Notes under the pieces: model-generated | Database searches by the model: none | What the model was told of the DNA's origin: nothing | The model's input: only the letters and a program-made list of their open reading frames with translations | Assembly (NCBI GenBank): GCA_050952725.1 | Contig: JBMNLN010000001.1 | Span: 415,638-479,637 of the forward strand | Source: Bacilli bacterium | GTDB lineage: Bacteria > Bacillota_I > Bacilli_A > RFN20 > CAG-826 | Length of the DNA: 64,000 nt | Reading direction: 5' to 3' | Shown: piece after piece, positions 41,514 to 63,636 of the stretch | Position numbering within the stretch: position 1 is the stretch's first letter | Layout: each line of letters begins with the position of its first letter | Translations under genes and position numbers: made by a program

Positions 41514-42470
41514 ATGATTGCGATTGGCATTGATATCGGTGGCACCTCGATTAAAGGGGCGGCGATTACAGAGAAAGGAAAAGTATTAGAAGTTTTTTCC
41601 TTACCCGTTATCGCTGGTGATAGCCAAGAAACAACAATTAACAATTTAATTGCCACGGTGAAAAAATACATCGTAGAACAAGGGTTCAAGCAAGAAGAAA
41701 TCCTCGGAATTGGCTTGGGTGTTCCTGGAAGTATCGATTCAGTGCGCGGCTATTGCGATTATTCCAATAATTTAAAATGGTCCAATCTTCCGATTGTGAA
41801 GATGTTTGAAAAAGAATTTGCTTTGCCGATTAAAATTACCAATGATGCCAATGCGGCTGCCTTAGGTGAAGCGAAATTTGGTGCAGGCAGAAAATTTAAA
41901 AACATGATTCTTCTCACCTTGGGCACCGGTGTCGGCGGCGGGATTATCATCGATGGTAAACTCTATGAAGGAAACGCGGGGAAAGGGGCCGAATTAGGCC
42001 ACACTGTCACCAAAATGAATGGGAGAAAATGCACTTGTGGTCGCAAAGGTTGCTTAGAAGCATATGCTTCGGCGACTGGATTGATTTTTGATACTAAACA
42101 AGCAATGAAAAAAGATAACAAATCTTTAATGTGGAAAATAAGTAAAGAACTCGGCATCATCGATGCTCGCGTGGCCTTTGAGGCGGCAAAACAAGGCGAT
42201 CAAACCGCACAAAAGGTCGTGGATAATTACATTATGTATTTAGGAGAAGGGCTATTGAACTTCTTTAATATTTTCCGTCCTGAGGCCGTGGTACTCTCGG
42301 GAGGAATTGCAAATCAAGGCGAATATCTCTTCGGTCGCTTAGATGCGTATTGCCAAGAAAGAAAATACGGCTTTGAATGTACGCCTGCAGTTAAAATTCT
42401 CGGTTCAGAATTAGGCTATGATTCAGGCAAGATTGGGGCAGCAGCCTTGTTTTTCCAAGGAGATTTTTAA
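41514..42470 (+). CDS. glcK: ROK-family glucokinase
   Basis: IGIDIGGTSIKGA ... GIGLGVPG ... zinc motif CTCGRKGCLEAY. 318 aa. Confidence 0.85.
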   Translation: MIAIGIDIGGTSIKGAAITEKGKVLEVFSLPVIAGDSQETTINNLIATVKKYIVEQGFKQEEILGIGLGVPGSIDSVRGYCDYSNNLKWSNLPIVKMFEKEFALPIKITNDANAAALGEAKFGAGRKFKNMILLTLGTGVGGGIIIDGKLYEGNAGKGAELGHTVTKMNGRKCTCGRKGCLEAYASATGLIFDTKQAMKKDNKSLMWKISKELGIIDARVAFEAAKQGDQTAQKVVDNYIMYLGEGLLNFFNIFRPEAVVLSGGIANQGEYLFGRLDAYCQERKYGFECTPAVKILGSELGYDSGKIGAAALFFQGDF

Positions 42471-43384
42471 TGAAATTAATCAAACTCACACCCGCGGTTA
42501 AATCTTATCTTTGGGGAGGGGACTTCTTTCAAAAATACGGCAAATTTCCAGAGACGAAGATTATTTCTGAACTTTGGGAATTATCAGTTCGCCCCGGAAA
42601 CTCATCGCTGATCGCCTCAGGCGCATTTAGAGGAAAACCACTCGCGGAAGTTTTAACCACAAAAGAAGTCGGTCGAGCGTCTGAACGCTTTCCTTTTTTT
42701 CCAATCCTGATTAAATTAATTGACGCCAAAGAGAATTTATCCGTCCAAGTTCATCCAAATGATGAATATGCGCTCAAACATGAAAACTCTTTTGGCAAAT
42801 CAGAAATGTGGTATATTATCTCGGCCGACGAAGGTGCAGGACTTTATGTTGGCTTTAATGATGATTACGCCCCAAAAGAAATTGAAGAACATTTAAACAA
42901 AGGGACCATTCTTCAAACTCTAAATTTCTTCAAAGTAAAACCAGGCGATTGTTTTATTATTAATCCTGGAACGATTCATGCGATTGGCCAAGGAGTGCGC
43001 TTGCTGGAAATTCAACAAAATTCCGACTTGACCTATCGCCTTTATGATTATAATCGCACAGAAAAAGATGGTAAACCACGAGAACTTCATATTCAAAAAG
43101 CACTCAAAGTCTTAAATTATTCTAAGTATGTCCATCATAAAACTTCAAGTTCCGTTCTTGCGGATAATCAATATTTCACGGTGGAACATCACCCAATTAA
43201 ACAAGAATTAATCATTAATAAATCGAATTCTTTTGTTGCTTTCACTTTTCTATCAGGAGAAGGAAAAGTTGACGACTTGGAATATCGTTCATTTGATACA
43301 TTCTTTTTACCAGCGGGCCAAACTTGCAAAATTAATGGTCATGGCGAGATAATCATGACTTATATTACTGACGATAAAAAATAA
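42470..43384 (+). CDS. manA: Mannose-6-phosphate isomerase, class I (cupin)
   Basis: QVHPNDEYA and GTIHAIGQGV motifs of Bacillus-type PMI. Start overlaps the glcK stop. Confidence 0.8.
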   Translation: MKLIKLTPAVKSYLWGGDFFQKYGKFPETKIISELWELSVRPGNSSLIASGAFRGKPLAEVLTTKEVGRASERFPFFPILIKLIDAKENLSVQVHPNDEYALKHENSFGKSEMWYIISADEGAGLYVGFNDDYAPKEIEEHLNKGTILQTLNFFKVKPGDCFIINPGTIHAIGQGVRLLEIQQNSDLTYRLYDYNRTEKDGKPRELHIQKALKVLNYSKYVHHKTSSSVLADNQYFTVEHHPIKQELIINKSNSFVAFTFLSGEGKVDDLEYRSFDTFFLPAGQTCKINGHGEIIMTYITDDKK

Positions 43385-43418
43385 AAAAGGCTCCATTATT
43401 TGAAGCCTTTTTTGGTAA
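43384..43418. terminator. Bidirectional terminator between convergent manA and the SGNH hydrolase
   Basis: AAAAAGGCT-ccattatttga-AGCCTTTTT plus T-run. The loop overlaps the stop of the minus-strand gene. Confidence 0.5.
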
Positions 43419-44043
43419 GATAAGCGATTAGTTCATCAGCGATGACTTGATGGCCTTTATCGTTAGGATGAAGACCATCATGAAAGAATTCACTTGGTTG
43501 CTGGGTATCGGGCATGGGAATTCCTTCAATTACGAGATAATCAATTCCATAATGTCCACAGACTTGTTTGATGGCCTGGCGATATTCTTTTAAGCGAGGT
43601 ACCGTGCGGTTAAGAGGATGGTGATCACTTTTGGGATTATTTTCGTTATAGCGATACAGCGGTAAGATAAAGCAAATTTTTTCTTTGGGAAGCTTACCGA
43701 CAATCAACAGATAATCGATAAGTTGTTTAAGCGCTCCATAAAAAGTGTAAGGAGTAACATCACCAAACTTTCCTAAAGGGGCATCACCATGTCCCCAGTC
43801 ATTGGTGCCTCCAAACACAAAAAGCATGTCGCAAGTATAGTCAATCCATCGCGCTCTTAAAATAAAATCTTCATCAGGATTAGTGGGAACATGAACCCTT
43901 TGACGGGCAATCCGCGTACCCGAAACCCCATAATTTAATTCTTTAGCATTGAAATGTTTACAAACTAATTCGGGATATCTTTTGTTGTTGATTTTAAAAA
44001 CTAAATTATCAGTAATTGAGTCGCCTAAGAATACTATTTTCAT
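43396..44043 (-). CDS. SGNH/GDSL hydrolase (probable carbohydrate acetylesterase)
   Basis: MKIVFLGDSITDN (block I), GTND (block III), DGLHPNDKGH (block V). Confidence 0.8.
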   Translation of the reverse strand: MKIVFLGDSITDNLVFKINNKRYPELVCKHFNAKELNYGVSGTRIARQRVHVPTNPDEDFILRARWIDYTCDMLFVFGGTNDWGHGDAPLGKFGDVTPYTFYGALKQLIDYLLIVGKLPKEKICFILPLYRYNENNPKSDHHPLNRTVPRLKEYRQAIKQVCGHYGIDYLVIEGIPMPDTQQPSEFFHDGLHPNDKGHQVIADELIAYLTKKGFK

Positions 44044-44076: not shown

Positions 44077-44685
44077 TCAGATATTTTTAACTAAGTCAAT
44101 TAAATATTCGCCATGAATTTCGCCAATAAATTCATGTCCTTTTGGCGATAAATGTAAACCATCAACAAAGTAAGATTTAGGATCGTTACTTAGATAGGCA
44201 TTGAAAAACAAGCCATCAAGAGGGATAAAAGCATCAGCGTATTTCAACATCTCTAAACGAATAATTTCCTGAAACTCAATAAGAGTTGGTCGTGCTTCAT
44301 AACGCTTATAAATATCAACGGGACAAAGATAGGGTTCGACCACAATAAGACGGGCTTCGTATTGTTTAATCAATTTTAAAATTGCTGTGTAGTTTTCCTG
44401 GAAAAAAAGAGGAGTATAATTTGCTCGAGAATCGTTTACGCCAATAAAAAGCGAGACGATATCAGGTTGATATTTTATTAGTTCTCTTTCAAGCCTTTTG
44501 CGCACATCATCGGTTTTACTGCCCGCTACCGCCTCATTAAAAAAGACGAATTCAATATTTGGGAAAGCGGTTATAACTTTGTTGGCACTGATAAAAGGAT
44601 AGCCCTTTCCAAGCGAAGCATCGGTTTTTTCAAATGAATTAGCTGTGAGGCTATCACCTTCGAATAAAATGGTTATTTTTTTCAT
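44077..44685 (-). CDS. SGNH/GDSL hydrolase (second copy)
   Basis: LFEGDSLTAN, GVNDS, DGLHLSPKGH blocks. Confidence 0.8.
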   Translation of the reverse strand: MKKITILFEGDSLTANSFEKTDASLGKGYPFISANKVITAFPNIEFVFFNEAVAGSKTDDVRKRLERELIKYQPDIVSLFIGVNDSRANYTPLFFQENYTAILKLIKQYEARLIVVEPYLCPVDIYKRYEARPTLIEFQEIIRLEMLKYADAFIPLDGLFFNAYLSNDPKSYFVDGLHLSPKGHEFIGEIHGEYLIDLVKNI

Positions 44686-44729: not shown

Positions 44730-46010
44730 TCATATCTTCACATTTAGAATATCGAAAACAGTAGCATTGGAGTTATGGAAAGTTTCTGCACCATTAAGAG
44801 CAATGCGGAGCACTAGATATAATTTGTCTTTTTCAATGAAGAATGAAGGGTATTGAACCCCGTTTAAATCTTTATCAAGATGAGTGATATCATCGATTAT
44901 TTTTACTTCATCCCATTTTTCTAAGTCGCAAGACCGATATAATTTCATTACTTGTCTTGGGAAGCAAGTGGTGTTTCCCATCGCATAATAATAACCTTGA
45001 TATTTTTCTATGTAGAACTTGCACCACCCACACTCCATATCTATTGTTTTTTCAAAGCGAAGTTCGTTTGATTGCAGGTCATAATGCAAAACAAGAGCGG
45101 TTTGATAAGCAAAGCGCAGAAAGACATATATTTGATTATTATATTCGACAATATTTCCTTCCTCCGCATAGCGCATCGTTTGATCACCGCCCCAAGCAAA
45201 ATCGGGAACAATTTCATTGGAAATGCGCCACGAAGCAGGATGCATTAATCCAGAGCGAATATTACCGCTTGCCACTTTAACATGGGATTCATTGTCTCCA
45301 ACCACGCCGCGGAAAGCAAAAACAATATATTTATCGTCGACTAATATTTGAGTAGGTGATGTTCTACCTTCTTCAACAATGGTTACCGATTCTCCCCAAT
45401 TAAAACCATCGTTAGATTTAATTAGGTCAATGGAGTTATCGAATAAATTGCTGCCATAGAAATAAAGTTCATTGTTAACTACAAATAATCTTCCCCATTG
45501 GGAGGGGACAAAATCGCAGACAAATTGCCAAGATTTTCCTTCATCTTCTGAGACAAATAACATGGTCGCGGTATGACCATTGTCTTTGGTTCCACCATTT
45601 TTAAAGATGTCCATCGTCACCCATAATTTTCCTTGAAAACGGATGATAAAAGGTGAACCTAAGAAGTTCCCACTATGGGCATATTGGGTTTCTTCTTTGT
45701 CGACATAATTGATAACATCATGGAGAAAATCCCCAGTATGAAATTTTCTAATTGCGCTTTTGTTCTTTTTAGAGATGATTTGAACTGTTAACTCCGACTG
45801 TTCAGGGAGATGATTAATCGTAACGCTTTTTTCTTGCGTTGTTACTTTCTGAAATATCTTTTTATTTTTGCGAACTATAATAGTGAAGTCTTGATCTTCA
45901 CTTGCAAAGTTGACAGTCACTGAATTTTTACCAGGCGCTAAACGGTTAATAAAAATGCCATATTCAAAATCATCTTGTTTATAGGGTTTATAACACTTTA
46001 AGGGATTCAT
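44730..46010 (-). CDS. BNR/Asp-box beta-propeller protein (sialidase-like fold), cytoplasmic
   Basis: Asp-box SEDEGKSW and other propeller-like repeats. No signal peptide. 426 aa. Confidence 0.45.
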   Translation of the reverse strand: MNPLKCYKPYKQDDFEYGIFINRLAPGKNSVTVNFASEDQDFTIIVRKNKKIFQKVTTQEKSVTINHLPEQSELTVQIISKKNKSAIRKFHTGDFLHDVINYVDKEETQYAHSGNFLGSPFIIRFQGKLWVTMDIFKNGGTKDNGHTATMLFVSEDEGKSWQFVCDFVPSQWGRLFVVNNELYFYGSNLFDNSIDLIKSNDGFNWGESVTIVEEGRTSPTQILVDDKYIVFAFRGVVGDNESHVKVASGNIRSGLMHPASWRISNEIVPDFAWGGDQTMRYAEEGNIVEYNNQIYVFLRFAYQTALVLHYDLQSNELRFEKTIDMECGWCKFYIEKYQGYYYAMGNTTCFPRQVMKLYRSCDLEKWDEVKIIDDITHLDKDLNGVQYPSFFIEKDKLYLVLRIALNGAETFHNSNATVFDILNVKI

Positions 46011-46118: not shown

Positions 46119-47561
46119 TTATGCAATTCGATATGGACAATCGCCGTCCTCGTTTTCATAACTTTCACAGTCAAGGCATGTATAGGAATATAAATGTGCG
46201 CGGAACATCTTGAATTTAAAACGATGATTTTTCTTTGACGGCAATTCGGCCATGTCTTTGGCCCAAGTCACTCGGTAACGAAGTTCATCGATGGGTTCGA
46301 CTTTACAATCATCAAAGCCAAAACCTTCGTAAGGTGTATTTTCTTCGTTGGTAATCGCTACTTTGATATACGCTTTTAGCCCGATATCAGCATTGAGAAT
46401 CAGTCCTTTGCCAACGTTTAGGGGAATGGTGGTAAATCCTCCATGTGATTCTGCATAAAGAGAAGTATAACCATCCTCGCGATAAATCATTCGCCAAGTA
46501 CCAGGTTTTCCCTCGGTGCCGAAACCACCACCATTATGACCGCCTTTAAATTTTGTTAAATAGTGGATGTATTTATTGTCCTCGGCGACAAAACCAAAAC
46601 TGACATAATGCCCCATATAACCATCCGTTTCTTGATTGATTAACGGCATATTCTCGTGCGGGATGGTCCAGGTATTTAAGTCTCTAGAGAAGGCAATAAC
46701 TGGTTTTACTGTATCTTCGGTGCGATGAAAAATTGAGGGCATCATGACAAATGCCGTTTCTCCAGTTCCGGGCCAAGCCCAAAAAGGCGAAGTATAGTAA
46801 TCAGTATCTGGTTTATCATTCATGGAACCATTCAACAAAATTGTTCCTTGATTCCAATTGATAAAATCTGGACTTTCAAAAGCCACAATCGTCCGTCTAA
46901 TCAAATGATTGGAAAATTGCGCTTTGGTCATGGCCACATATTTGCCGCTTTCTTTTAAATAAATCAAACCCGGGAAAGAGTCGCCTCCTTTAAAGGCCTG
47001 ACGATAGTTTTTCCAATGAATTCCATCCGCAGAGGTCGCAGTGTAATTATCAACGCTTTCCACGACTTTACCGCTGTATTTCACTCGGGTAAAGAGCAGT
47101 TTGAAACGCTCATTTTTCGGCGCGTGCTCATCATAGTAAACAATATCTCCTTCGTCGACCCAAGGCATTCCTGGTTTCCCTTCCATGCGCACGATATTGT
47201 TTTCTTTCTTGCCTTGGAATTCCACCAAACCTAAATTGGGTTTGACCCAATTAACCCCGTCATCACTAGTTGCATAGCAAAGCATAATCCATTCGGGAGT
47301 TCGATTGATGGCCTCATACCACATATGATATTGACCATTGATTTTTATTACCGAACTCATGCCGGCTCTACCGATATCCCAAGGTTTATCAGGCTCGAGG
47401 ATTGGTGTGGACTCAAGGAAAGGTTTATGAGCGACGATTTTCACTCCATAAGGACTGCCATCTAAAGGTTGATATCCAGTTAGATCTACACCATAACCAG
47501 GATCGACTTCATACCAATCGACAAAGACGTGTTTTTTATTTTTAACAGTTTTTTTCGCCAT
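46119..47561 (-). CDS. Five-bladed beta-propeller glycoside hydrolase/phosphorylase-like protein (GH130/GH43/GH32 clan), cytoplasmic
   Basis: 480 aa with repeated W/D-rich blade motifs and no signal peptide. C-terminal Cys cluster CLDCESYENEDGDC. Family assignment uncertain. Confidence 0.4.
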   Translation of the reverse strand: MAKKTVKNKKHVFVDWYEVDPGYGVDLTGYQPLDGSPYGVKIVAHKPFLESTPILEPDKPWDIGRAGMSSVIKINGQYHMWYEAINRTPEWIMLCYATSDDGVNWVKPNLGLVEFQGKKENNIVRMEGKPGMPWVDEGDIVYYDEHAPKNERFKLLFTRVKYSGKVVESVDNYTATSADGIHWKNYRQAFKGGDSFPGLIYLKESGKYVAMTKAQFSNHLIRRTIVAFESPDFINWNQGTILLNGSMNDKPDTDYYTSPFWAWPGTGETAFVMMPSIFHRTEDTVKPVIAFSRDLNTWTIPHENMPLINQETDGYMGHYVSFGFVAEDNKYIHYLTKFKGGHNGGGFGTEGKPGTWRMIYREDGYTSLYAESHGGFTTIPLNVGKGLILNADIGLKAYIKVAITNEENTPYEGFGFDDCKVEPIDELRYRVTWAKDMAELPSKKNHRFKFKMFRAHLYSYTCLDCESYENEDGDCPYRIA

Positions 47562-47575: not shown

Positions 47576-49312
47576 TTATTTTAAATCTTGCGTAGCTTTG
47601 ATTTGATTTGCATCAACTTTGGCTTCGTGGTCGTGATCGAGCAAACCATTTACTTCCTGTTCCACATCACTGACTTGGGTGTAGCAATAACCCGCCAAAT
47701 AAGGAAGGTTTTGCAGAGATTTTATTAAAGAACAGACACGTTCGATATATTGTTTATCATTTACGACAGCTTCCCCATAGCCCCAATTTTTATCATCCAC
47801 ATTCTTTTTAAAGGCGGTGCCCCCGAATTCAGAGAAAATAATCGGCTGCCCTTGATAATGATAACCTTGAGCAAAAGCCCCTTTCCAATGCGACTGCCAA
47901 ACTTCGGTTAAAGCTTTTTCTTGGTCTTGGTAGTAGGAGAAGAGTTTATCAGCATCTTGTTCGTAATGATGAAACGTAATAATATCTGAAATTGTATGTT
48001 CCCAACCATCATTAGAGATGACAAACCGATACGGGTCATAAGCTTTGGTCAATTGATACGCACGAACCGTAAAATCTTGTATTTCTTGATTAGTTAAGAT
48101 ATCTCTAATCCCCCATGATTCATTAAAGAGGGTCCAAGTAATAACACAGGGGTGATTATAATTTTGTTTCAAGATGTGAGGTAATTCATGCATGTAGTTA
48201 TCCATCATCGCTTGCGAGAATTCATAAGCGGATGGAACTTCTACCCAGGTAATAAACCCAAGGACATCCGCCAGAAAAAGAAATCTTTCTTCCTCGATTT
48301 TCTGGTGTTTCCGGCATCCGTTAAAACCAAAAGCCTGCATTTTTTTAATATCGTCCTCTAACGCTTGAACATTGGGCGCAGTTAAGTTGGTGTGTTTCCA
48401 GTAACCTTGATCAAGGACGAGTTTTTGATAGAATTCTTGACCGTTAAGATAAACCTTAGCCTTTTTAGCATTTATGGAACGGAAACCACAATAAGAGAAA
48501 ACCTGATCGATAATTTGCCCACCTTCTTTAATGATGAACTCTAAATCGTATAAAAAAGGATGCTCAGGTGACCAAGGAGTCACCTGCTTCAAAGAAGTAG
48601 CAATTTTAATAACGTCTTTGTCGATGATTGTTTCATTAGATGCAATGAGGACATTATCCGATAAAACCCTCACCATAAATGTTTTTCCTACTGCATTATC
48701 CGTTTCGACTTCCAACTCTAAAGTTTTAGTGGTTAAATGCGGATCAATTCTCACGTGCGAGATGTAACTTAAAGGCACTTTTTCCAACCACACATCTTTA
48801 TAGATGCCAGTGGTGGGAACGTAAAAACACTCATAACTTTCATCGCGACTTCGCTGTTTGCCGCGAAGTTTTTCCTTGGAATAGTCATCTTCACATTTAA
48901 TCACTAGTAAATTGCGACCTTCATGTACAAAGTCAGTAATTTCAAGGGTGTGTCTAAAATAAGCCCCCTTGGTTTTACCGACAAGTTTTCCATTGAGGAA
49001 GATTTTACCGATGTAATCAAGTCCTTCTAGATGCAGAAGAAGCCGTTCATTCTCATTTTTAGAAATTTCAAGATATCTTTGATACCAGAGATAGTCGTGC
49101 CGAGTTTGATCGTTGACTAAAGAAGCAGCGGTTTCAAAAGTGAAAGGAACAAGAATATCTTTTTGCTTATTAAAACCATGATTGTAATTGAGGGATTCGC
49201 CCTTATTTTGATCATCAAAGGCGAAACCCCATAATCCGTTTAAAAGCACAAAATTCTCGCGGAAAAGCGATGGTCGCGGACATTTTAATCGCTTGTTGTA
49301 GAGGCTGATCAT
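47576..49312 (-). CDS. Glycoside hydrolase family 2 enzyme (beta-mannosidase/beta-galactosidase type), cytoplasmic
   Basis: GH2 sugar-binding, Ig-like and TIM-barrel order. Acid/base region NHPCVITWTLFNESWG. 578 aa. Confidence 0.75.
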   Translation of the reverse strand: MISLYNKRLKCPRPSLFRENFVLLNGLWGFAFDDQNKGESLNYNHGFNKQKDILVPFTFETAASLVNDQTRHDYLWYQRYLEISKNENERLLLHLEGLDYIGKIFLNGKLVGKTKGAYFRHTLEITDFVHEGRNLLVIKCEDDYSKEKLRGKQRSRDESYECFYVPTTGIYKDVWLEKVPLSYISHVRIDPHLTTKTLELEVETDNAVGKTFMVRVLSDNVLIASNETIIDKDVIKIATSLKQVTPWSPEHPFLYDLEFIIKEGGQIIDQVFSYCGFRSINAKKAKVYLNGQEFYQKLVLDQGYWKHTNLTAPNVQALEDDIKKMQAFGFNGCRKHQKIEEERFLFLADVLGFITWVEVPSAYEFSQAMMDNYMHELPHILKQNYNHPCVITWTLFNESWGIRDILTNQEIQDFTVRAYQLTKAYDPYRFVISNDGWEHTISDIITFHHYEQDADKLFSYYQDQEKALTEVWQSHWKGAFAQGYHYQGQPIIFSEFGGTAFKKNVDDKNWGYGEAVVNDKQYIERVCSLIKSLQNLPYLAGYCYTQVSDVEQEVNGLLDHDHEAKVDANQIKATQDLK

Positions 49313-55642: not shown

Positions 55643-56512
55643 TTACCCTTTTAGCCCACTGGTGATGGCTAATCCTTTCGTAAGCAATTTTTGTGAACAA
55701 ATATAGAGAATAATTAACGGGCTCATCCCCACCACACATCCCGCCATTAAAGCGGGATAGTTTTGCGCATAAGGCCCCCTTAGCATTGTCAAGGCAATTT
55801 GTAAGGTGTAATATCGATCGTTTTGGGCGAAAATCAAAGCCCCCATGTAATCATTATAAGAAGTGATAAACATCAAGATGAATTGAGTCAATAAAGCGGG
55901 AATGGAGATTTTAATCATCAAGCGATTAAAAATTCCCAACGGAGTTAAACCATCAATCTTGGCTTGATCGATCAAATCGTTTGGAATCGTTAAGTAATAT
56001 TGCCTTAAGAAGAAGACCGCGGAAATATTACCAAACATCGGTGGAATCATCAGAGGCAGCGGAGTTCCCATCCATCCCAAGGCGTCAAAGATAATCACTT
56101 GAGCGATAATCGCCAATGTATTCGGCAGCATCAAGGTAAACATCAACACCGAAAACATGAATTTCTTCGATCTGAACTTCAGTTTGGCAAAGGCGAAAGC
56201 CGACATGGCTGACATATAGAGACCAACGATAATCCCGGGAGTGTAAATCCAAAGCGTATTCGCTAAACTGCGAAAGATATTAACTCCTGTAGTATTTTTA
56301 AAAACCGTCATATAGCCCTGAGTGGAGAAACCAAGCGAGGGCCACAGGCGAAAAGTGGCCAAATTGGCCTCTTGTTCGGTCATAAACGAGGTTAAAAGCA
56401 AAATATAAAAAGGAAAGAGAACATATAAAATTGCGATGATGACTAAAACATAATCAATCACGCGCGGGCGCTCAACTAAATTGGTGCGAAATTTTCTCAT
56501 AGGGGCATCCAT
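55643..56512 (-). CDS. Carbohydrate ABC transporter permease (MalG-like)
   Basis: 289 aa, 6 TM, EAA loop (DQAKIDGLTPLGIFNRLMIKISIPAL). Confidence 0.8.
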   Translation of the reverse strand: MDAPMRKFRTNLVERPRVIDYVLVIIAILYVLFPFYILLLTSFMTEQEANLATFRLWPSLGFSTQGYMTVFKNTTGVNIFRSLANTLWIYTPGIIVGLYMSAMSAFAFAKLKFRSKKFMFSVLMFTLMLPNTLAIIAQVIIFDALGWMGTPLPLMIPPMFGNISAVFFLRQYYLTIPNDLIDQAKIDGLTPLGIFNRLMIKISIPALLTQFILMFITSYNDYMGALIFAQNDRYYTLQIALTMLRGPYAQNYPALMAGCVVGMSPLIILYICSQKLLTKGLAITSGLKG

Positions 56513-57484
56513 CTAGTTATCGTAGGTGACAAGTTTATCACCGACTTTGAAGAGAATACGGGAGAAGAGAAGAATAAAGATACAAGTAACCCAAGAGAGG
56601 GCACTGGCAATCCCAAACCCTTCAATATTTGTTTGGGTAAAGGCCATCCGGTAAATGTAGTTGGTCAACGTCATCGCGGCAAAGTTAGGCCCGACGTCAC
56701 TATTAGCGATCAGTGACATAATCGCCATTTCTTGGAAAGCGGCGATATACGACATGACAATTACGTAAAAGAGAGTGGGGGAAATCGCCGGCAAAGTAAC
56801 CTTTAAGAAGATTTTTCGTTTGCTAGCTCCATCGATTGTCGCAGCTTCCACCAAAGTTTTATTAACATTGGATAAAGCGGATTGAAGTTGCATGATATTC
56901 GTCCCGCGCATCCACACAGCAATAAAGATACAAAGGGGCATAAACCAAGTATCGGTGGTCATAAACAAAATCGCCTCTCCTCCAAGGCGTGTGATAATCG
57001 TGTTAACTAAACCAAACTCAGAAAAAATCCACTGCCACATTAAAGTAACTGCGACCGCGGAGGTGACACTGGGCAGATATAAAATCACGCGCGCTACTTC
57101 TTTACCTTTAAGCGGTTTGGAAAGCAGATTCGCCAGGAAAAGCGACATTAAGACAGTGATTGGCACCCCCAGGGAGAAGTAGAGGGTGTTGCGAATGGCG
57201 ATATAAACCCATTTTTTAGAAAACAGGGAGATATAATTGTCAAACCCAATCCATTCAGCTTTATAGATATTAAAGGATTTGAGATCGCAAAAGGAAATAT
57301 AAAGCGAGATAAACATCGGCAAGAGACCAAAAATAAGATAGCCGATAAACGGCATACAGGCCATCAAAGTCCCCGCCAGATTCTCATGCCTCTTCGCATC
57401 TTTCATGCTGCTGTTTCTATCGAGGCTTTTGAAGGCTTTATCTCGGACTTTTAAAATATAATTTTTACTTCCTAGAGCAATCAT
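56513..57484 (-). CDS. Carbohydrate ABC transporter permease (MalF-like)
   Basis: 323 aa, TM-rich, EAA loop (VEAATIDGASKRKIFLKVTLPAISP). Confidence 0.8.
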   Translation of the reverse strand: MIALGSKNYILKVRDKAFKSLDRNSSMKDAKRHENLAGTLMACMPFIGYLIFGLLPMFISLYISFCDLKSFNIYKAEWIGFDNYISLFSKKWVYIAIRNTLYFSLGVPITVLMSLFLANLLSKPLKGKEVARVILYLPSVTSAVAVTLMWQWIFSEFGLVNTIITRLGGEAILFMTTDTWFMPLCIFIAVWMRGTNIMQLQSALSNVNKTLVEAATIDGASKRKIFLKVTLPAISPTLFYVIVMSYIAAFQEMAIMSLIANSDVGPNFAAMTLTNYIYRMAFTQTNIEGFGIASALSWVTCIFILLFSRILFKVGDKLVTYDN

Positions 57485-59322
57485 ACACTTAACCAGTATT
57501 TTTCCCTTAATTCTCGATTAGAGTCATCAACGACACGGTTTTTCCATGATTCATAGGTTTCTTTGTCATTGCGAACATTAGCATTTAAGGTATTAGCCCA
57601 TAAATCCACCCAAGTATAGTTGCGTAGATACCACCAGTCGCCTGGGCCTTCAAACTCTAGATGTTCAAAGAAACAATCGACATTTCTTGCCTGCGAACCG
57701 GCATAGATAATTTCATCCTTAAGTGAGACTTGGTTAGGGAAGAAGCCATAACGCGCTTTCACTCGTTGGCCTTCTTTGGAAGCGCACCAAGCGATGAATT
57801 TAGCGACGCTTTCTTTCTTATCGCACATTTCTCGGGTCACCAAACATTTCGAATTGGAGTGCCCCGCGGCTTTTCCGCGTGCCACCACCGTATCATTGCT
57901 TGGTTCAAAGGGATCTTCATACTCTTTAAATTGTGCAAGTGGGGCAATATCCCATTCATAGTTTACCGCTTGGCATTGTTGGGAAACCGTTTGCATATAG
58001 GCCGAAGATTCGACTAAAAGGGCGATTTTTCCCGAATAGAAATACATTGTCGGAGTCCGGTTAGAGAAAGTCGCTGGGTTGGGCGAAATGGCTAAACCGT
58101 ATTTTCCTTCGACTTCAGAAGATTTCGAAATACCAGTCTTTAAGTAACGGCAAAACGCTTCTCGCGTGGAGGGGAGTTCAGCTAAAATTCCATTATTGGC
58201 CGCATCTTTAACCGTTTGCCGGATGGTTGCATCACCATTATCGTAAGAATAATTCCCATTGCTCATCGCAACGAGTTTCTTGGTGATGCTGCATTCATAC
58301 TTATCCTTAATGTCAAGAGTTTCCCCTTTAATGTAGTGTTTTCCGGTAAATGTTCCTTCAAAGCCTTCATCGCTGACCACGATATAATTTTTAGCAGGAT
58401 CAAGAAGCGAGAAGTTAAATTCGCCAGTGCCGCTTAAATCGGCTAAGCAGTCGCCGCCGACTGACCAACCGTAGTTAAACCACCATTCGGTAAAATAGCC
58501 ATAAGCGAGCGTTTGGGAAATGTTTTTGTAATTAGGATTATATGAAGGGGTAAAAAGCATGGCTAAATCTTCGATTTCATCCCAGTTACAGGCGATGCGA
58601 TTGTTGAAGACCATGATTTCATTGCTTTGAGGCATCGACCAAGAGTAACCAGAGACATAGGGGTTAATGCTCCGATAAAAACCTTTTTTGGGAATGGTGA
58701 TACTAGCAATCTTGGGAAAGTCAGATTTTTTCTTGCCACGGCGATCGGCAATTTCCCCGCGATTCCAAGCCTCCATATCCTCTTCATCGACGGAGATGAC
58801 GATAATTCCCGCTTTTTTCATGAAGGTTTCATTGTAATAAAGCGCGGTGGCCTTGGTATCAATGGGCATCCCATATTGAGGTTCGCCGCGAGCGCTAGAA
58901 TTCGTCTCTTTGTTATATCTTGTTCTCAACAAGACATTTTCAGGGATATCGGAGAAATCGATATCGGTAATCGCATTGAATTCATCAGTCAATGGATAAA
59001 CGATATCCATATCCACCCATTTTTTAAATTCATTTTCCGTCACCATGAAAATATCAGGGCCTGATTTTGAGGAAGCGGTATATTGAATTACCTGTGTATA
59101 ACCGCTACCGACAGGCTTGGTGGAGGTTTGGACTTTGATATCATGTTCTAAACCGTAGGTTTTGTTGAATTCGTCGACCATCTTGTTATAGGAATCGAGT
59201 TCATTGGCGTCACCATAAATCCAAAATTCTAAAACACTGGAGTCGCGCGCACATGAGGCTAAAGAAGAGAATAGCCCGAGAACAAGTGGTAATAACAAGA
59301 GATTGGATAATTTTTTCTTCAT
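57481..59322 (-). CDS. Extracellular solute-binding lipoprotein of the ABC importer
   Basis: Start trimmed to MKKKLSNLLLLPLVLGLFSSLASC (lipobox). About 613 aa. Confidence 0.7.
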   Translation of the reverse strand: MKKKLSNLLLLPLVLGLFSSLASCARDSSVLEFWIYGDANELDSYNKMVDEFNKTYGLEHDIKVQTSTKPVGSGYTQVIQYTASSKSGPDIFMVTENEFKKWVDMDIVYPLTDEFNAITDIDFSDIPENVLLRTRYNKETNSSARGEPQYGMPIDTKATALYYNETFMKKAGIIVISVDEEDMEAWNRGEIADRRGKKKSDFPKIASITIPKKGFYRSINPYVSGYSWSMPQSNEIMVFNNRIACNWDEIEDLAMLFTPSYNPNYKNISQTLAYGYFTEWWFNYGWSVGGDCLADLSGTGEFNFSLLDPAKNYIVVSDEGFEGTFTGKHYIKGETLDIKDKYECSITKKLVAMSNGNYSYDNGDATIRQTVKDAANNGILAELPSTREAFCRYLKTGISKSSEVEGKYGLAISPNPATFSNRTPTMYFYSGKIALLVESSAYMQTVSQQCQAVNYEWDIAPLAQFKEYEDPFEPSNDTVVARGKAAGHSNSKCLVTREMCDKKESVAKFIAWCASKEGQRVKARYGFFPNQVSLKDEIIYAGSQARNVDCFFEHLEFEGPGDWWYLRNYTWVDLWANTLNANVRNDKETYESWKNRVVDDSNRELREKYWLSV

Positions 59323-59349
59323 GCTTTTTCCCTCTGTATCTTTAATCAT

Positions 59350-60627
59350 TTATTCAATGTTAATCATTTTAAATTCACCGTCTCTTAAAGATTCGTCCGC
59401 CTTGTACACGCAGATATGCGAGGCGATGGAATCATCGATTTTGGTCGTGGAAATACTCGGTTCTTCCTTTCTTAAGATGCGGACAAAATCTTCCATTAAG
59501 AGCGAATCGCCGCCACCATGGCCGACGGTTTTATCGACAAGATCGTTAACGTCTACTTCCCTTTTATCATACCATGAGGTCTGGAAATTTTGCTTTCTCA
59601 CCACGTAGGTTCCCGATTCAAAGAAGCCCTCGATTTCTCCCTTTGTGCCGATGAGATGAATCGATCTTCCAGGACGTGGAACTGCCGAGATCATCGAGTG
59701 AACCGCTGTCGACCCATTCTCGAATTTAACAATCAGGCTTTGGTGATCGACCACATCAGCGGTGGTTTTGTAAATGCACTCTCCGAAAGGATCATCAGTT
59801 TTAAGCGCCTCAATTTTTTCTTTCATCGTGATTTGATCATGCGGCTTATCAATTCCCGCGAAGGAATAATGCGGGAAGAGATCATTGAGAAGGTAGAGTG
59901 ATTTGGCGCTGTAAATACAAGTGTCGACATGGGGACAATCTAAGCAGCGAGCGGTGGAGTCTACGGGGGCGTTTTCTTTAACTAAATTATTTCTTCCACC
60001 CATACTGACGACTGAGACCGGTGTGGTTTGATTATTCAACCAACAGATTAAGTCCAAGTCGTGGCAGCATTTAGCAAGGAGCATCGAGGAGCCACATTCC
60101 TTTTCATTTTTCCATTTGCCGCGTGCGTACGAACAAGAAGTATGCGAGATACCGACGAACTCATTGGTTTGCATATGGATGATTTTCCCGATGGCTCCAT
60201 TGAGAACTTCTTGTTTAATCGCGGTGTAAAATGGGGTATAGCGCAGGACATGACCCACCATCATGAATAGACCTTTAGCGGCAGCTAAATCGCGAAGTTC
60301 AAGCAATTCCTTTTCATTATTTACCACCGGCTTTTCAATCAGCATATGATAGCCCTTTTCTAGGCAAGATTTGCCGTGATAATAGTGCAATTCATCCATC
60401 GTTGCGACAATGGTTGCATCGGCAAATTTATCTTTGGCGATGAATTCTTCAAACGAGGTGAAAAGTTGCTCATCACGGAGATGGAATCTTTCTTTAGCGA
60501 GATTTAATTTGAATTCATTGGGATCGACAACGGCTTTTATTTCTAATAACTCGGGATGATCAACGGCGTACTTTCCATAGATACTACCGCGATCTCCATA
60601 ACCGACAATCACTGCTGAAACTACCAT
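59350..60627 (-). CDS. Gfo/Idh/MocA-family NAD(P)-dependent oxidoreductase
   Basis: Start trimmed to MVVSAVIVGYGDRGS (Rossmann GxGxxG) preceded by GAAGAAGG. The track ORF begins at an upstream TTG. Confidence 0.75.
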   Translation of the reverse strand: MVVSAVIVGYGDRGSIYGKYAVDHPELLEIKAVVDPNEFKLNLAKERFHLRDEQLFTSFEEFIAKDKFADATIVATMDELHYYHGKSCLEKGYHMLIEKPVVNNEKELLELRDLAAAKGLFMMVGHVLRYTPFYTAIKQEVLNGAIGKIIHMQTNEFVGISHTSCSYARGKWKNEKECGSSMLLAKCCHDLDLICWLNNQTTPVSVVSMGGRNNLVKENAPVDSTARCLDCPHVDTCIYSAKSLYLLNDLFPHYSFAGIDKPHDQITMKEKIEALKTDDPFGECIYKTTADVVDHQSLIVKFENGSTAVHSMISAVPRPGRSIHLIGTKGEIEGFFESGTYVVRKQNFQTSWYDKREVDVNDLVDKTVGHGGGDSLLMEDFVRILRKEEPSISTTKIDDSIASHICVYKADESLRDGEFKMINIE

Positions 60628-60675
60628 AATTAACAACCTTCTTCTCCGAGTAATGTTTGCTTTCAATCAGTGCCC

Positions 60676-63636
60676 TTACTTCAAATTCATCGAAGCATCA
60701 TAATGAACATCGATATAATCCAAGGCGGCTTGATCATAAATTGCTTTGACCAAGGTAAGAGAAGCACCGATTGGAGCAGAGCATTGTTTGTAAATTCCAA
60801 ACATGAATTTATCCGCTGATGAACCGAAGTTTTGAGCTGGAACCACACAGGTATAAACGCTAGTTGAATAAATTAACTTATCATCGATGTACATATAGAA
60901 TCTCTTGTTCAACAAGATAATCGTTAAGTTGTGTGATGAACTGCCATCCTTTAAAGGGGCGGTATGATTGACTTTATCGTATTCAAACTCTGGAACGGGT
61001 CCAGCATTTGTCGCCCGCAAGTATTGCCGTGAGACAAGATTGGTCGAGAAGATAAGCCCATTAGCTGCAATCCCGTATTCATGTGATTTCGGTCTCCCAT
61101 CAGTTTGCAGGGTGCCATCGGTAATTGTAATGCCGCCATAGGAGTGGTTGAGTTCAACTCCGGGGATGCTGTGATCGGGAATGGTGACTTCGATAATGGC
61201 GGTCGAGGCCATCACATGTAAATAGTGGTACATGCCATTGCCAAAGTATGTACAACTTTCTGTAGTGGTGAAGATGTTTCCGTTGCGTTTCATCCCCCAG
61301 ACTGAATCGATGTCATAAGTAGGATCAAAATACAGTTTTAGCGTGAGTTTCCCTTCCGAAACGACAAATCCAGTAGTTGTGGAGCGGTCTTGATTAATCG
61401 CCCACCCTTTTGCATAAGCGTTAGGGATGGGCTGATCAGTAAGTTCACTAGGAATGTCTGTGGGGGCAGTCACTAGGTCACCAGCCGAAAATGGAGCACT
61501 CGGTGTTGATTCGACGGTCTTGATGTAGGAACTCTTGAAGTATTCATTTTCATTGGTTTGGAAATAATATTCCACCTTATATGAAGCGGGGACGCGGGTG
61601 GCAAAGTAAATATTGAAAGTTGTATCGCCATTGACTTCTTTGCGCAAGACGTTGATTGCATCATCTGTGCCTTCGGGAACAATCTTTTCCGCCATTAAAT
61701 CCGCGGCTCTTTCGCCAATTAATAACATATCGTCAGATGAGAAGTGGTATTTGTCGTAACAACCCGGCTTGGGTTCTTTAGTAATCGGGTCGCAAATTTC
61801 ATATGTTTCAAGCGCGTAGACATCATTCATCTTGGCGGCGATTCTCTCTTGTTCATCGCGAACATTGGAAACGCCGAGATGACCGCCAGCAAAGGTTGAA
61901 GAAATCTTCCCGACAATAAATGGGGCAGTTACCGCATTGTAATCAAAGATGGCATTGAAATCTTCCCGCAAATCGTTGATTAAGGCTTCTAAATGGATGC
62001 CATAATCGCCCGAGTTAGCTTGCGATGATTCTTGTTCACCTTGAATCCAGAGCATTCCGCCTAAGCGCACCATATAGCCACTATCTTTATAATGCTCAAC
62101 CGCATTACTAATCGTGGCCATGAAAGAATCATAGGCTTTACCAGTAATCGTCGGATTAGCACCCGCCCCTCGCATTGAGGGAGAACACCAGTTGCCATAT
62201 GTTTTTGAGACATTATCATCTTGATAGTCATAGAGCCAACTACCGCCAAAAGCGGTTTTGACAATAGTCGACATCCCACTTGGATTATTTCTTTCAATAA
62301 TCCTGCCCATCCCCACTTCGGGACCGAAGTGATTGGCGCTTGGACCAAGGCCGAATTTAACTGGGGTCGACATATTACTCACCACGTTCGCATCGGCGCG
62401 TCCATAATAGGTAACATGGGTAGTTTCGGGATAGTTATCAGCTTTATCTCCCGTAACTCCACTAACCAAAGAATAGCCAGCAGCATTTGATTGACCAGCG
62501 ATGAGATAAATATCAGCAATTGTGCTCGATTTAAGTTCGTAATCCTCGGGATTTTTATCCGTGGCTAAGATTTGGTGGAATCGCGGTTCAACCGTATAGG
62601 TGGTGTGATTGGGGACTTGGAATGATTCAGTATAAGCTGGAGTGGTTTCATCATCGATAAATTGATTGATGGTCACCGTAGCTGGATAAAGAGGTTCTCT
62701 AGTGTAAACCGCGGTATAGGAAGCGTTTTTAGTCACGGCGACCAATTCTGGAGTCCAACTATCAAAGGTATAAGTCCACGTGTTATCGTCTGGTCTAGTT
62801 GGGGGTTGCCCTTGATAGACGGGAATTTCACCGTAAGCAGTGGGAATATTAGCAATTAAAGCCCCGTTATAATTTAAAAACCGAATATCGTATAACCTAG
62901 CTGCTTCGGAAAATTGGGCAATATACTCGGTGTCTTCGTAGATGATTCCAAGTTCTGGCAACCATCCTGAAAAACTGTAAGTTTTATCAACAGTGGACGG
63001 CTTGGTGGGTTCAGCTCCCTTGTAGACTGGTTTGGTCCCACTTCCCGCTAGGGTTTCGGCAAGGATGGACCCATCATAATTTTTGAAGACGACATTTAAA
63101 GGAGTAGTTTCGGTAAAGTAAGCCACAAGCGTGACATCTGCTTTAACGATATCCGTATCAAAGTCCCATAATGTGGTTGTACCCTTGATAACCCAACCTT
63201 CAAAGTAGTAGTAAACATCACCTTCAAGATAACTTTCCAATGGCGTTGGTCTTTCAATTAATGAGCCATATTCATACTCGGTTGGCGGACCATCATCGAT
63301 GATTACGATATAGGTATTAGTGCTAGTTGTATAAACCGCGGTATAAGTTTGATCGGAATCAGCGGGATGGAGCGCAGGATCCCAACCGCCGAAGCGATAG
63401 GTATATTGGGCATCAGCTGCCCGCGTGGGAGTTGGACCTCCATAGGCGGGCATTGCTCCTTTTTTCGTCTTTGTTTCATATAAAAGGCTGTCATCATAAT
63501 TGACAAAGCGAATATCATATTCTGACTTTTCTAAATCAGAAACGCTGCTCGAACTATCACAACCTGATGCAGTGCCAGTAACAAAAAATGAGATTAAGGC
63601 AAAAATCATTGATTTGGCTAATTTGTTTTTTTTCAT
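60676..63636 (-). CDS. Giant lipoprotein (986 aa) with three N-terminal Listeria-Bacteroides (Flg_new) repeats and a SASA/DUF303-type esterase domain
   Basis: Lipobox VTGTASGC. Repeats end in YTYRFGGWDP..YTAVY, YSFSGWLPE..YIAQF and YTFDSWTPE..YTAVYT. Esterase block DIYLIAGQSNAAGYS. Confidence 0.75.
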   Translation of the reverse strand: MKKNKLAKSMIFALISFFVTGTASGCDSSSSVSDLEKSEYDIRFVNYDDSLLYETKTKKGAMPAYGGPTPTRAADAQYTYRFGGWDPALHPADSDQTYTAVYTTSTNTYIVIIDDGPPTEYEYGSLIERPTPLESYLEGDVYYYFEGWVIKGTTTLWDFDTDIVKADVTLVAYFTETTPLNVVFKNYDGSILAETLAGSGTKPVYKGAEPTKPSTVDKTYSFSGWLPELGIIYEDTEYIAQFSEAARLYDIRFLNYNGALIANIPTAYGEIPVYQGQPPTRPDDNTWTYTFDSWTPELVAVTKNASYTAVYTREPLYPATVTINQFIDDETTPAYTESFQVPNHTTYTVEPRFHQILATDKNPEDYELKSSTIADIYLIAGQSNAAGYSLVSGVTGDKADNYPETTHVTYYGRADANVVSNMSTPVKFGLGPSANHFGPEVGMGRIIERNNPSGMSTIVKTAFGGSWLYDYQDDNVSKTYGNWCSPSMRGAGANPTITGKAYDSFMATISNAVEHYKDSGYMVRLGGMLWIQGEQESSQANSGDYGIHLEALINDLREDFNAIFDYNAVTAPFIVGKISSTFAGGHLGVSNVRDEQERIAAKMNDVYALETYEICDPITKEPKPGCYDKYHFSSDDMLLIGERAADLMAEKIVPEGTDDAINVLRKEVNGDTTFNIYFATRVPASYKVEYYFQTNENEYFKSSYIKTVESTPSAPFSAGDLVTAPTDIPSELTDQPIPNAYAKGWAINQDRSTTTGFVVSEGKLTLKLYFDPTYDIDSVWGMKRNGNIFTTTESCTYFGNGMYHYLHVMASTAIIEVTIPDHSIPGVELNHSYGGITITDGTLQTDGRPKSHEYGIAANGLIFSTNLVSRQYLRATNAGPVPEFEYDKVNHTAPLKDGSSSHNLTIILLNKRFYMYIDDKLIYSTSVYTCVVPAQNFGSSADKFMFGIYKQCSAPIGASLTLVKAIYDQAALDYIDVHYDASMNLK

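Follow-up and report, generated by a model that had tools for sequence, protein, structure and literature searches.

A conserved sugar-harvesting gene cluster of uncultured gut bacteria with a predicted furanosidase-type GH2 enzyme and a sialidase-fold protein

The stretch of DNA analysed here (64,000 nucleotides, referred to as the window) contains a cluster of surface, transport, and cytoplasmic sugar-processing genes about 20 kb long. An ORF scan recovered all 15 genes of the cluster exactly where the initial annotation had placed them, and the gene order given there was borne out in coordinates, families, and cellular locations by the ORFs, by Pfam and NCBIfam searches, and by reading of export signals. 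In seven loci from MAGs of Christensenellaceae and other Clostridia, genes for a binding protein of ~620 aa and for one or more permeases lie beside a homologue of the gene for a 426-aa cluster protein; subsets of the seven add the oxidoreductase, the GH43-like protein, the 864-aa-type protein, the 480-aa protein, and SGNH or SASA esterases. Because the same gene set recurs in other lineages, its arrangement is not due to chance. We conclude that the ~20-kb sugar-harvesting cluster is genuine and is conserved in uncultured gut bacteria. The genes described below lie on the minus strand unless noted.

Apart from the binding protein of the importer, four products carry export signals, read from their N-termini, and belong to the cell surface or are secreted. 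The gene at 60676..63636 codes for a 986-aa lipoprotein (lipobox ASGC) with N-terminal Listeria-Bacteroides-type repeats followed by a sialate-O-acetylesterase-family (SASA) domain (Pfam, 3.5e-20; residues 375-648); its GQSN motif lies within GQSNAAG, and orthologues are present in loci L012 and L013. A 650-aa lipoprotein (53686..55638; lipobox LSAC) matched Pfam GH43 (PF04616) with 60.5 bits against a cutoff of 32.2 (2.2e-16). Its Asp/Asp/Glu triad (D64, D252, and E351) is intact, resides in GH43-typical motifs, and is invariant in four orthologues. The catalytic domain is divergent (the best solved relative, 4qqs, was matched at 1e-17), GH43 subfamily assignment was tried without success, and the C-terminus forms a conserved domain outside recognised families. 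An 864-aa lipoprotein (51083..53677; lipobox LGGC) had no family match, no recognised catalytic domain, and no Pfam or PDB sequence match. Its family is rare (15 relatives among 5.8 billion clustered sequences), CarboxypepD_reg and InlB-repeat domains are seen in relatives, and in L003, L012, L013, and L014 the 864-aa-type gene always adjoins the GH43-like gene. A 590-aa secreted protein (49309..51081), whose signal peptide is without a Cys, gave no Pfam match even at E <= 5; a 1120-aa relative is found in L013. A C-terminal module is common to the esterase (nt 60721-61632), the 590-aa protein (~310 residues; nt 49354-50286), and the 864-aa protein (nt 51128-51751). Residues 669-972 of the esterase match residues 266-576 of the 590-aa protein (blastp, 8e-17), and the module of the 864-aa protein matches the 590-aa C-terminus at 3.6e-4. 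The 864-aa protein is predicted to be a glycan-binding protein, which we consider probable.

The binding protein of an ABC importer (57481..59349) is a lipoprotein (lipobox LASC) of unusual size, ~613-622 aa, with Pfam SBP_bac_1 and SBP_bac_8 matches; orthologues with 48-52% identity occur in L003, L009, L010, L012, L013, L014, and L016. Two permeases of 323 and 289 aa (55643..57484), both matching BPD_transp_1, have orthologues with 50-59% identity in related loci. No ATPase gene was found in the cluster itself. A divergent plus-strand gene, whose first 58 codons (63825..64000) precede the end of the window, codes for a putative AraC-type regulator. The 58 codons show weak similarity to AraC N-termini (E 0.06-0.6), but L003, L009, L010, L012, and L013 each have an AraC gene in the corresponding place.

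The remaining proteins of the cluster (two SGNH esterases, an oxidoreductase, a GH2 enzyme, and the 480-aa and 426-aa proteins) have no discernible signal peptide and are taken to be cytoplasmic. The SGNH/GDSL esterases, of 202 and 215 aa (44077-44685 and 43396-44043, respectively), matched Pfam Lipase_GDSL_2 (6e-21 and 2.7e-22) and contain the GDS, ND, and DxxH blocks of SGNH esterases; SGNH genes were also found in L003, L011, L012, and L013. Their presumed role is the de-O-acetylation of oligosaccharides after import. The 438-aa NAD(P)-dependent sugar oxidoreductase of the Gfo/Idh/MocA type (59350..60666), identified by Pfam GFO_IDH_MocA and C-terminal domains, likely starts at Met14 of the listed ORF. 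Its PDB and NCBIfam matches were generic and far under cutoffs (inositol, levoglucosan, and glucuronide-3 dehydrogenases, with YjhC/NanOx at 1e-6). An orthologue with 58% identity occupies the same slot in L013, and those of L003 and L012 are 34% identical.

The GH2 enzyme (47576..49312; Pfam GH2) was compared with solved structures. The best PDB matches were 7XYR (GH2_19; 1.6e-87), 7SF2 (3e-63), and the galactofuranosidase ORF1110 (9J6N; 8e-59), while all remaining GH2 structures scored 7e-25 or weaker, and no chain named beta-mannosidase was present among the best 60 matches. GH2 group III (GH2_18/19) comprises furanosidases, while beta-mannosidases are found in GH2_13/17 and have a conserved active-site His replaced by Trp (PMC12243196). 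In the cluster enzyme, the His is kept (His336, in "RKH"). Residues K152, Y164, H336, N397/E398, E495, and E553 align with K212, Y228, H401, N463/E464, E530, and E594 of ORF1110 (PMC11627007), and Y551 probably has its counterpart in Y512, at an alignment shift of four residues. The enzyme retains seven, and probably all eight, active-site residues of the galactofuranose-specific enzyme, among them the nucleophile and those binding O2, O3, O5, and O6 of Galf. Streptomyces ORF1110 (9J6M/9J6N, GH2_18) and 7XYR have the same three-domain GH2 architecture and NE acid/base motif, and ~90% of GH2_19 proteins are cytoplasmic, as is the cluster enzyme; identity to ORF1110 is only moderate, and the cluster enzyme has no CBM42 domain. 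As judged by sequence, the enzyme is a GH2_19-like member of the furanosidase clade (GH2_18/19) and not of the beta-mannosidase clade. The retained His336 and the group III closest relatives both argue against a beta-mannosidase of GH2_13/GH2_17. The predicted activity is that of an exo-beta-D-galactofuranosidase or an alpha-L-arabinofuranosidase; in group III, Galf versus Araf specificity is not readable from sequence (PMC12243196).

The 480-aa protein (46119..47561) gave sub-threshold GH32N and GH130-type matches. Its AlphaFold model (pLDDT 91.5) contains a five-bladed beta-propeller followed by a C-terminal beta-sandwich, which confirms the five-bladed propeller called earlier. The fold is closest to GH130 structures, and the nearest solved relatives are GH130 beta-1,2-mannoside phosphorylases (12-16% identity). 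The best structural and profile matches, Teth514_1788/Teth514_1789 (9FJ8, 7FIP), are likewise cytoplasmic five-bladed propellers; in contrast to them, the 480-aa protein carries an additional segment at its N-terminus as well as the beta-sandwich. Pfam GH130 (PF04041) did not match at E <= 0.01, and the NCBIfam beta-1,2-mannobiose phosphorylase model scored 24.5 bits against a cutoff of 450. The "EDPR" motif, which contains the catalytic Asp of GH130 enzymes, was searched for in the 480-aa protein and not found. D144 (79%) and R152, K154, and R223 (100%) are conserved and are candidate catalytic or phosphate-binding residues, with blade 1 alone aligning by sequence. We conclude that the 480-aa protein, a distant relative of GH130, belongs not to that family but to an uncharacterised one. 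The earlier guess of a GH130-type phosphorylase was therefore partly right: the distant relationship stands, while membership is not supported by the family models.

The cluster converges, as initially annotated, on a separate plus-strand unit (41255..43384; profile matches), and the two meet at a bidirectional intrinsic-terminator hairpin (43383..43413; a 13-bp stem between an A-run and a T-run). The unit consists of an RbsD/FucU mutarotase gene that is truncated (85 aa, C-terminal half only), a ROK kinase gene, glcK (41514-42470; ROK 247 bits; TIGR00744 glucokinase 239 bits versus a cutoff of 260), and a type I mannose-6-P isomerase gene, manA (42470-43384; TIGR00218, 125.9 versus 116.2). 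A search of the 87 other loci found no ROK or mannose-6-P isomerase homologue within 10 kb. Thus, glcK and manA adjoin the cluster but are not a conserved part of the system.

These observations bear on the proposal, made in the initial annotation, that the locus serves acetylated gluco- or galactomannan. Such a system would have a GH2 beta-mannosidase, a GH130 beta-1,4-mannobiose phosphorylase (the 480-aa protein), esterases acting on acetyl-mannan, and glcK and manA finishing the pathway. The esterases, the adjoining kinase and isomerase genes, and the GH130 mannoside phosphorylases nearest to the 480-aa protein are all in keeping with it. However, the best-matching GH130 relatives are beta-1,2-specific, Pfam searches detected no endo-beta-mannanase (GH26, GH5, GH113, or GH134) in the cluster, with E-values relaxed for the 864-aa and 590-aa proteins, and no GH36/alpha-galactosidase, epimerase, or phosphomannomutase was found in the cluster. 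Moreover, the oxidoreductase and the BNR protein, for which that scheme had no obvious place, proved to be parts of the conserved core of related loci. Sequence-level evidence argues strongly against a mannan system, and we reject it because of the clade of the GH2 enzyme, the missing mannanase, GH36, and epimerase, the separate glcK-manA unit, and the conserved oxidoreductase and BNR core; we regard it as highly improbable.

The BNR protein (44730..46010; 426 aa) gave sub-threshold BNR_2 (15.9 bits versus a cutoff of 31.4) and GH43 matches only. Its AlphaFold model (pLDDT 94.4) has an N-terminal Ig-like domain followed by a six-bladed propeller with Asp-boxes, i.e., a sialidase fold, in agreement with the BNR call. 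The family is large (~600 clusters at 50% identity), and some distant multidomain relatives pass BNR_2 (e.g., P0253 at 44.2 bits). Residues E284, R299, R352, and Y387 are 98-100% conserved, with E-to-R and R-to-Y spacings of 15 and 35, similar to the GH33 spacing; they are candidates for the Glu/Tyr nucleophile pair and the two further Arg residues of GH33 enzymes. The Arg of the (F/Y)RIP motif of GH33 is missing: in a profile alignment, P120 falls on the RIP proline and is preceded by G118-S119; the invariant R88 and R402 might act as substitutes. A pyruvate aldolase gene adjoins the 426-aa-family gene in ~33 of 77 loci, and therefore a 2-keto-3-deoxy (ulosonic) sugar is implicated. The aldolase that usually accompanies the 426-aa family belongs to the DHDPS family but is very divergent (43 bits to DapA, 27 to NanA), and neither nanE nor nanK is linked. 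The GH33 exo-sialidases and KDNases (e.g., NanA 2VVZ, M. viridifaciens 1EUR, and A. fumigatus KDNase 4M4N) have nanA, yhcH, and nanOx as catabolic partners; the 426-aa protein differs from them in lacking the RIP Arg, in its sub-threshold BNR_2 score, in its cytoplasmic location, and in its own Ig-like N-domain. We consider it a candidate ulosonic-acid (Kdo/Dha/KDN/sialic-type) glycosidase of a large uncharacterised family.

A sialidase fold and a SASA family name also fit, loosely, the host-glycan alternative of the initial annotation. Host sialoglycans with O-acetylated sialic acids would then be the target: the SASA and SGNH enzymes would de-O-acetylate, the 426-aa protein would be a cytoplasmic sialidase, the ROK kinase NanK, and the oxidoreductase a NanOx/YjhC-like enzyme acting on anhydro- or dehydro-sialic acid. 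Sialic-acid clusters include NanOx, YhcH, and esterases as standard (PMC10017367). The PDB matches of the oxidoreductase include YjhC and RgNanOx (~1e-6), but the enzyme matches NanOx no better than a dozen other dehydrogenases, and the ROK protein, best classified as a glucokinase, is far under the NanK cutoffs of NCBIfam. In L011, a NanA-like lyase scored 162 bits to N-acetylneuraminate lyase; in the window, NanA, NanE, NagA, and NagB are absent, no DHDPS-family gene is present among the scanned ORFs, and GH20, GH29, GH95, GH101, and other mucin or N-glycan enzymes were not found. The missing RIP Arg likewise counts against a sialidase, the surface enzyme is of the GH43 type and the GH2 enzyme of the furanosidase type, and mammalian glycans are not known to contain furanoses. 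A sialoglycan target is thus quite improbable.

The 426-aa and 480-aa proteins recall another system, the RG-II enzyme BT1020 of Bacteroides thetaiotaomicron, described as a Dha hydrolase of sialidase-like type with a fused beta-L-arabinofuranosidase. PDB entry 5MQS bears the title "Sialidase BT_1020". BT1020 combines a sialidase-like propeller with a partner of the furanosidase type, and in the present cluster the genes for the 426-aa and 480-aa proteins are neighbours. In L011 and L012, these two genes share a cluster with a rhamnosidase gene, directly adjacent in L011, a neighbourhood that recalls the Araf-Dha and Rha-Kdo side chains of RG-II. The same proteins can be read in terms of plant arabinan, arabinogalactan, or pectic RG-I side chains. 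The GH43-like, GH2_19 (alpha-L-arabinofuranosidase), and GH3 enzymes would then cleave off Araf or Xyl, the 426-aa protein would be a propeller enzyme for neutral sugars, such as a GH93-like exo-arabinanase, the 480-aa protein a divergent GH43/GH137-type arabinofuranosidase, and the esterases would strip acetyl groups from pectin or hemicellulose, with the aldolases of related loci serving rhamnose catabolism. We consider an arabinan, arabinogalactan, or RG-I target unlikely.

Known Gram-positive PULs with ABC importers include the mannan locus of Roseburia intestinalis and the yes (RG-I) cluster of Bacillus subtilis. The logic is common to all three: lipoprotein or anchored surface enzymes, a binding protein with two permeases, cytoplasmic exo-enzymes, SGNH-type esterases, and an AraC-type regulator. 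The present cluster differs in being without the enzymes specific to mannan or RG-I (GH26, GH113, GH36, epimerase, PL11, and GH105). The initial recognition of a surface-to-cytoplasm glycan utilisation cluster with acetylesterases was right. In the reading we favour, with somewhat better than even confidence, the locus is a Gram-positive PUL (polysaccharide-utilisation locus) for an O-acetylated complex heteroglycan, not plant beta-mannan, conserved among uncultured gut Bacillota. The glycan would contain furanoses and, probably, an ulosonic sugar akin to sialic acid.

The pathway steps were inferred from family, location, and synteny. Outside the cell, the SASA esterase lipoprotein would take off acetyl groups and the GH43-like lipoprotein, its triad intact, would release oligosaccharides, while the 864-aa and 590-aa proteins may hold the polymer through the C-terminal module they have in common with the esterase. 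The binding protein and two permeases would bring in the fragments with an ATPase encoded elsewhere, probably by the MalK-like gene at 32497-33984. The later steps would be cytoplasmic. The two SGNH esterases would complete deacetylation, and the GH2_19-type enzyme would act on terminal residues, either beta-D-galactofuranose or alpha-L-arabinofuranose. Another residue, which may be a beta-mannoside, would be removed by the GH130-like 480-aa protein acting as a hydrolase or a phosphorylase, and the sialidase-fold 426-aa protein would free an ulosonic (2-keto-3-deoxy) acid sugar. The Gfo/Idh/MocA enzyme would oxidise or isomerise one freed or anhydro sugar, and the ROK kinase and mannose-6-P isomerase may pass freed hexose to glycolysis; the operon would be under control of the AraC-type regulator. 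The substrate most likely belongs to one of two kinds: glycans of microbial cell surfaces (bacterial capsules or EPS, or fungal glycans), or pectic side chains of the RG-II type bearing a furanoside joined to an ulosonic acid. Several enzymes of the cluster are members of unstudied families, and its core holds three unassigned enzyme families together with the rare 864-aa surface protein.

The initial annotation listed the genes of the leftward cluster correctly, and its coordinates coincide exactly with open reading frame boundaries. Leftward from position 63636, the surface and import part encodes a 986-aa SASA-domain lipoprotein, a Gfo/Idh/MocA oxidoreductase (59350-60666, minus strand), a large solute-binding lipoprotein (57481-59349, minus strand) and two permeases. 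A GH43 lipoprotein and two secreted proteins of 864 aa (51083-53677, minus strand) and 590 aa (49309-51081, minus strand), which lack a family match, come next; the cytoplasmic part consists of a GH2 enzyme (47576-49312, minus strand), proteins of 480 aa (46119-47561, minus strand) and 426 aa (44730-46010, minus strand) with sub-threshold matches only, and two SGNH esterases. Only 58 codons of the divergent regulator gene fall inside the window; the MAG locus tags for the source DNA are ACOX3K_02160 and ACOX3K_02165. For two genes the true start probably lies downstream of the listed one: the listed oxidoreductase opens at a TTG codon and has 13 extra residues ahead of the Rossmann sequence MVVSAVIVGYG (its orthologues have 423-426 aa), and the signal peptide of the binding protein begins at Met10, the public record calling a product of 613 aa. 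The oxidoreductase also contains a Cys-rich insert, CLDCPHVDTC, which to our knowledge is not found in typical family members. Its scores against NanOx, levoglucosan dehydrogenase, BT2158/9-type 3-dehydrogenases and inositol dehydrogenase were all far below the cutoffs.

All cluster proteins were compared by tblastn with 87 other loci encoding a relative of the 480-aa or the 426-aa protein. The ROK kinase (glcK) and mannose-6-P isomerase (manA) genes, previously counted as members, have no homologue in any of these loci. They form, with a truncated RbsD/FucU gene, a separate rightward unit that is transcribed towards the cluster, and exactly at the junction is a hairpin of 13 bp between an A-run and a T-run (43383-43413). 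We place glcK and manA outside the conserved system. The RbsD/FucU mutarotase gene itself (41255-41512, plus strand; 85 aa) matches only positions 77-138 of the 138-position profile, and is probably truncated or decayed, since it lacks the N-terminal half, which is not supplied by any open reading frame upstream.

The genes that could not be placed initially are the core of the system. Seven loci encode, near a counterpart of the 426-aa protein (37-44% identity), the ca. 620-aa binding protein at 48-52% and one or both permeases at 50-59%; these loci come from a Clostridia MAG of roe-deer caecum (L003/L012), from Christensenellaceae or Clostridia, including Hadza human gut (L009, L010 and L016), and from Christensenellaceae (L013), the seventh being L014. 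Subsets of the seven share further genes: those for SGNH and SASA esterases, an AraC gene, and those for the oxidoreductase at 34-58% identity, the GH43-like enzyme at 44-49%, a protein of the 864-aa type at 31-33% and the 480-aa protein at 48-53%. In these loci a GH3 gene occupies the place of the GH2 gene of the window, and two loci, L011 and L012, additionally carry a GH78-type rhamnosidase, an RpiB-like isomerase and a pyruvate aldolase.

The GH2 enzyme had been taken as a hallmark of mannan utilisation. Its closest solved relatives are 7XYR (1.6e-87), 7SF2 (3e-63) and ORF1110, a Streptomyces beta-D-galactofuranosidase (8e-59), all remaining GH2 structures scoring 7e-25 or weaker. In the 2025 subdivision of GH2, 7XYR (GH2_19, ca. 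90% of whose members are non-secreted) and ORF1110 (GH2_18) jointly form 'group III', the sole GH2 group in which furanosidases (alpha-L-Araf and beta-D-Galf) occur, while beta-mannosidases (GH2_13/17) have a Trp in place of a conserved His (PMC12243196). The window enzyme retains the ORF1110 residues (ORF1110 numbers in brackets) K152 (K212), Y164 (Y228), H336 (H401), N397/E398 (N463/E464), E495 (E530) and E553 (E594), and its Y512 probably corresponds to Y551 after a small alignment shift; the retained set, which thus includes the His, takes in the Lys, Tyr and Glu that bind galactofuranose O5 and O6. These relatives and residues argue strongly against a beta-mannosidase, so the mannan reading loses a hallmark and a furanose (Galf or Araf) has to be considered. 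Classical beta-mannan as the substrate is a weak alternative. Plain arabinan or pectin is a serious one. An N-glycan substrate was rejected, as no GH18/85, GH20, GH38 or GH92 is present.

What would still speak for a mannoside is the 480-aa protein, whose confident AF2 model (pLDDT 91.5) consists of a five-bladed propeller and a beta-sandwich. Single-sequence PDB searches with this protein and with the 426-aa protein gave nothing useful, and profiles and AF2 models were needed. GH130 beta-1,2-mannoside phosphorylases were then at or near the top by three methods, including Foldseek (7fip, 2.9e-12) and profile HMM search (6n1a first, 1.8e-11; 7fip next, 3e-11). The four distant homologues that carry PF04041 cannot be used as a bridge to GH130, because none has the GH130 'EDPR' catalytic motif. 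A fructan reading was discarded: the GH32N match of the 480-aa protein was sub-threshold, and GH130 was ahead of GH32 in every structure search. Several 480-aa homologues (L005-L008) lie in unrelated or housekeeping genome contexts, which were uninformative.

An exhaustive profile search with the 426-aa family yielded 615, 1446 and 2956 clusters (50% identity) at E <= 1e-30, 1e-10 and 1e-3, respectively; at the distant end of the family the proteins are multidomain and carry Laminin_G_3, sialidase-N and BNR_2 domains. When species-representative genomes were scanned, 80 loci with a homologue emerged, nearly all in gut Clostridia MAGs. A DHDPS/NanA-family gene directly adjoins the homologue in 31 of 77 loci, usually in a two-gene operon, aldolase then propeller gene, with a divergent AraC gene. 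In two loci (L024 and L063) the aldolase slot is filled by an HpcH/HpaI pyruvate aldolase, which is not homologous to the DHDPS type. The recruitment of two unrelated pyruvate aldolases beside the same gene argues, by association, that the product of the propeller enzyme is a 2-keto-3-deoxy sugar acid; among glycan constituents these are the ulosonic acids, for example Kdo, Dha, KDN or a sialic acid. Genes for YhcH (sialate-anomerase-like) and Gfo/Idh/MocA proteins occur near the homologues in seven and eight loci, respectively; no such aldolase gene is present among the open reading frames scanned across the window. Mammalian sialoglycan is a weak candidate for the substrate.

In some gut Clostridia MAGs (L037, L046, L048 and L052), the 426-aa family is represented by two or three paralogues in tandem, beside an ABC importer and an aldolase, which suggests that specificity has diversified within the family. 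In one lineage (L069, L077, L079 and L088), the homologue stands alone and has no sugar genes nearby; its conserved surroundings include a URO-D-like gene and four other conserved neighbours. Literature on Kdo/KDN hydrolases, RG-II and Christensenellaceae PULs yielded no published description of this locus or of the 426-aa and 480-aa families.

For the two large proteins of the cell surface part (864 aa and 590 aa), Pfam yielded no match even at E <= 5, NCBIfam none, and the PDB none when searched with a 16-sequence profile. The family of the 864-aa protein comprises as few as 15 proteins in 5.8 billion clustered sequences, and no catalytic domain was recognised in it. The C-termini of the esterase, the 590-aa and the 864-aa proteins are homologous (8e-17 and 3.6e-4), which suggests a common, putative glycan-binding module. 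The GH43-like enzyme has an intact Asp/Asp/Glu triad and is far from all solved GH43 enzymes.

A second PUL of the same design runs rightward upstream of the cluster (12627-33984, and 8906-12562). Its importer genes encode two permeases and a 534-aa binding protein, and its AraC gene is divergent. The other products are a surface protein of 1004 aa, a GH42 beta-galactosidase, a GH43 enzyme, a GH127-like protein (948 aa) that carries an F5/8 domain, and two tandem 1100-aa SASA esterases (mutually 74% identical, with Listeria-Bacteroides repeats). With an araB-araD-araA L-arabinose operon ahead of it, this PUL looks like an arabinogalactan or arabinan locus. At its end lies a 495-aa MalK-type ABC ATPase (32497-33984, plus strand; ABC_tran and OB_MalK), ca. 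120 residues longer than the usual MalK/MsmK. Since the cluster has no ATPase of its own, this protein may energise the importers of both PULs. At 35760-39037 (plus strand), one operon encodes a DUF4432 protein, a class II ketose-bisphosphate aldolase and a kinase of the FGGY family that resembles xylulokinase (275 bits, below cutoff); it looks like a small module for the catabolism of a pentulose or hexulose. Between it and the glcK-manA unit are genes for a McrB-N-like and NOV_C protein of restriction or defence type (39297-40526, plus strand) and for a cytoplasmic protein of 169 aa that is weakly similar to CBM9 (40541-41050, minus strand).

The observation made initially holds, and its interpretation is partly supported. 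Of the readings considered, a conserved Gram-positive PUL acting on an O-acetylated heteroglycan fits the locus best; this glycan would carry furanosides, probably an ulosonic acid and perhaps a beta-mannoside. Microbial surface glycans, where Galf, Kdo, KDN, Rha and O-acetyl groups are common, are one candidate source; the Araf-Dha and Rha-Kdo side chains of RG-II-type glycans are another. More tentatively, the 426-aa protein could represent a new GH family (ca. 600 clusters at 50% identity, mostly from uncultured gut Clostridia) of cytoplasmic sialidase-fold enzymes acting on glycans to free an ulosonic acid other than sialic acid (Kdo, Dha or KDN), which a dedicated, very divergent DHDPS- or HpcH-type pyruvate aldolase would then cleave. 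The locus would be the full polysaccharide-level version of this pathway, and two further novelties would go with it: a GH130-related family, to which the 480-aa protein belongs, and a glycan-binding module of the cell surface. If true, this would name gut organisms that eat Kdo/Dha-type sugars from pectic RG-II or from the capsules of other bacteria; according to a 2026 preprint, a gut consumption route for Kdo is as yet unconfirmed.

Christensenellaceae, Oscillospiraceae and related uncultured Bacillota abound in the gut and are linked to health, but little is known of their glycan diets. The locus is a compact conserved system whose core enzymes lie outside current family thresholds: a GH33-like family of hundreds of sequence clusters, a GH130-like family and a far-diverged GH43, together with a rare surface-binding protein. 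Should the substrate prove to be mere debris of arabinan or pectin, better annotation would be the whole gain. Otherwise the substrate, once found, could add new CAZy families, and could also reveal a Gram-positive gut route for ulosonic-acid/furanose glycans of microbial capsules, fungal walls or RG-II side chains.
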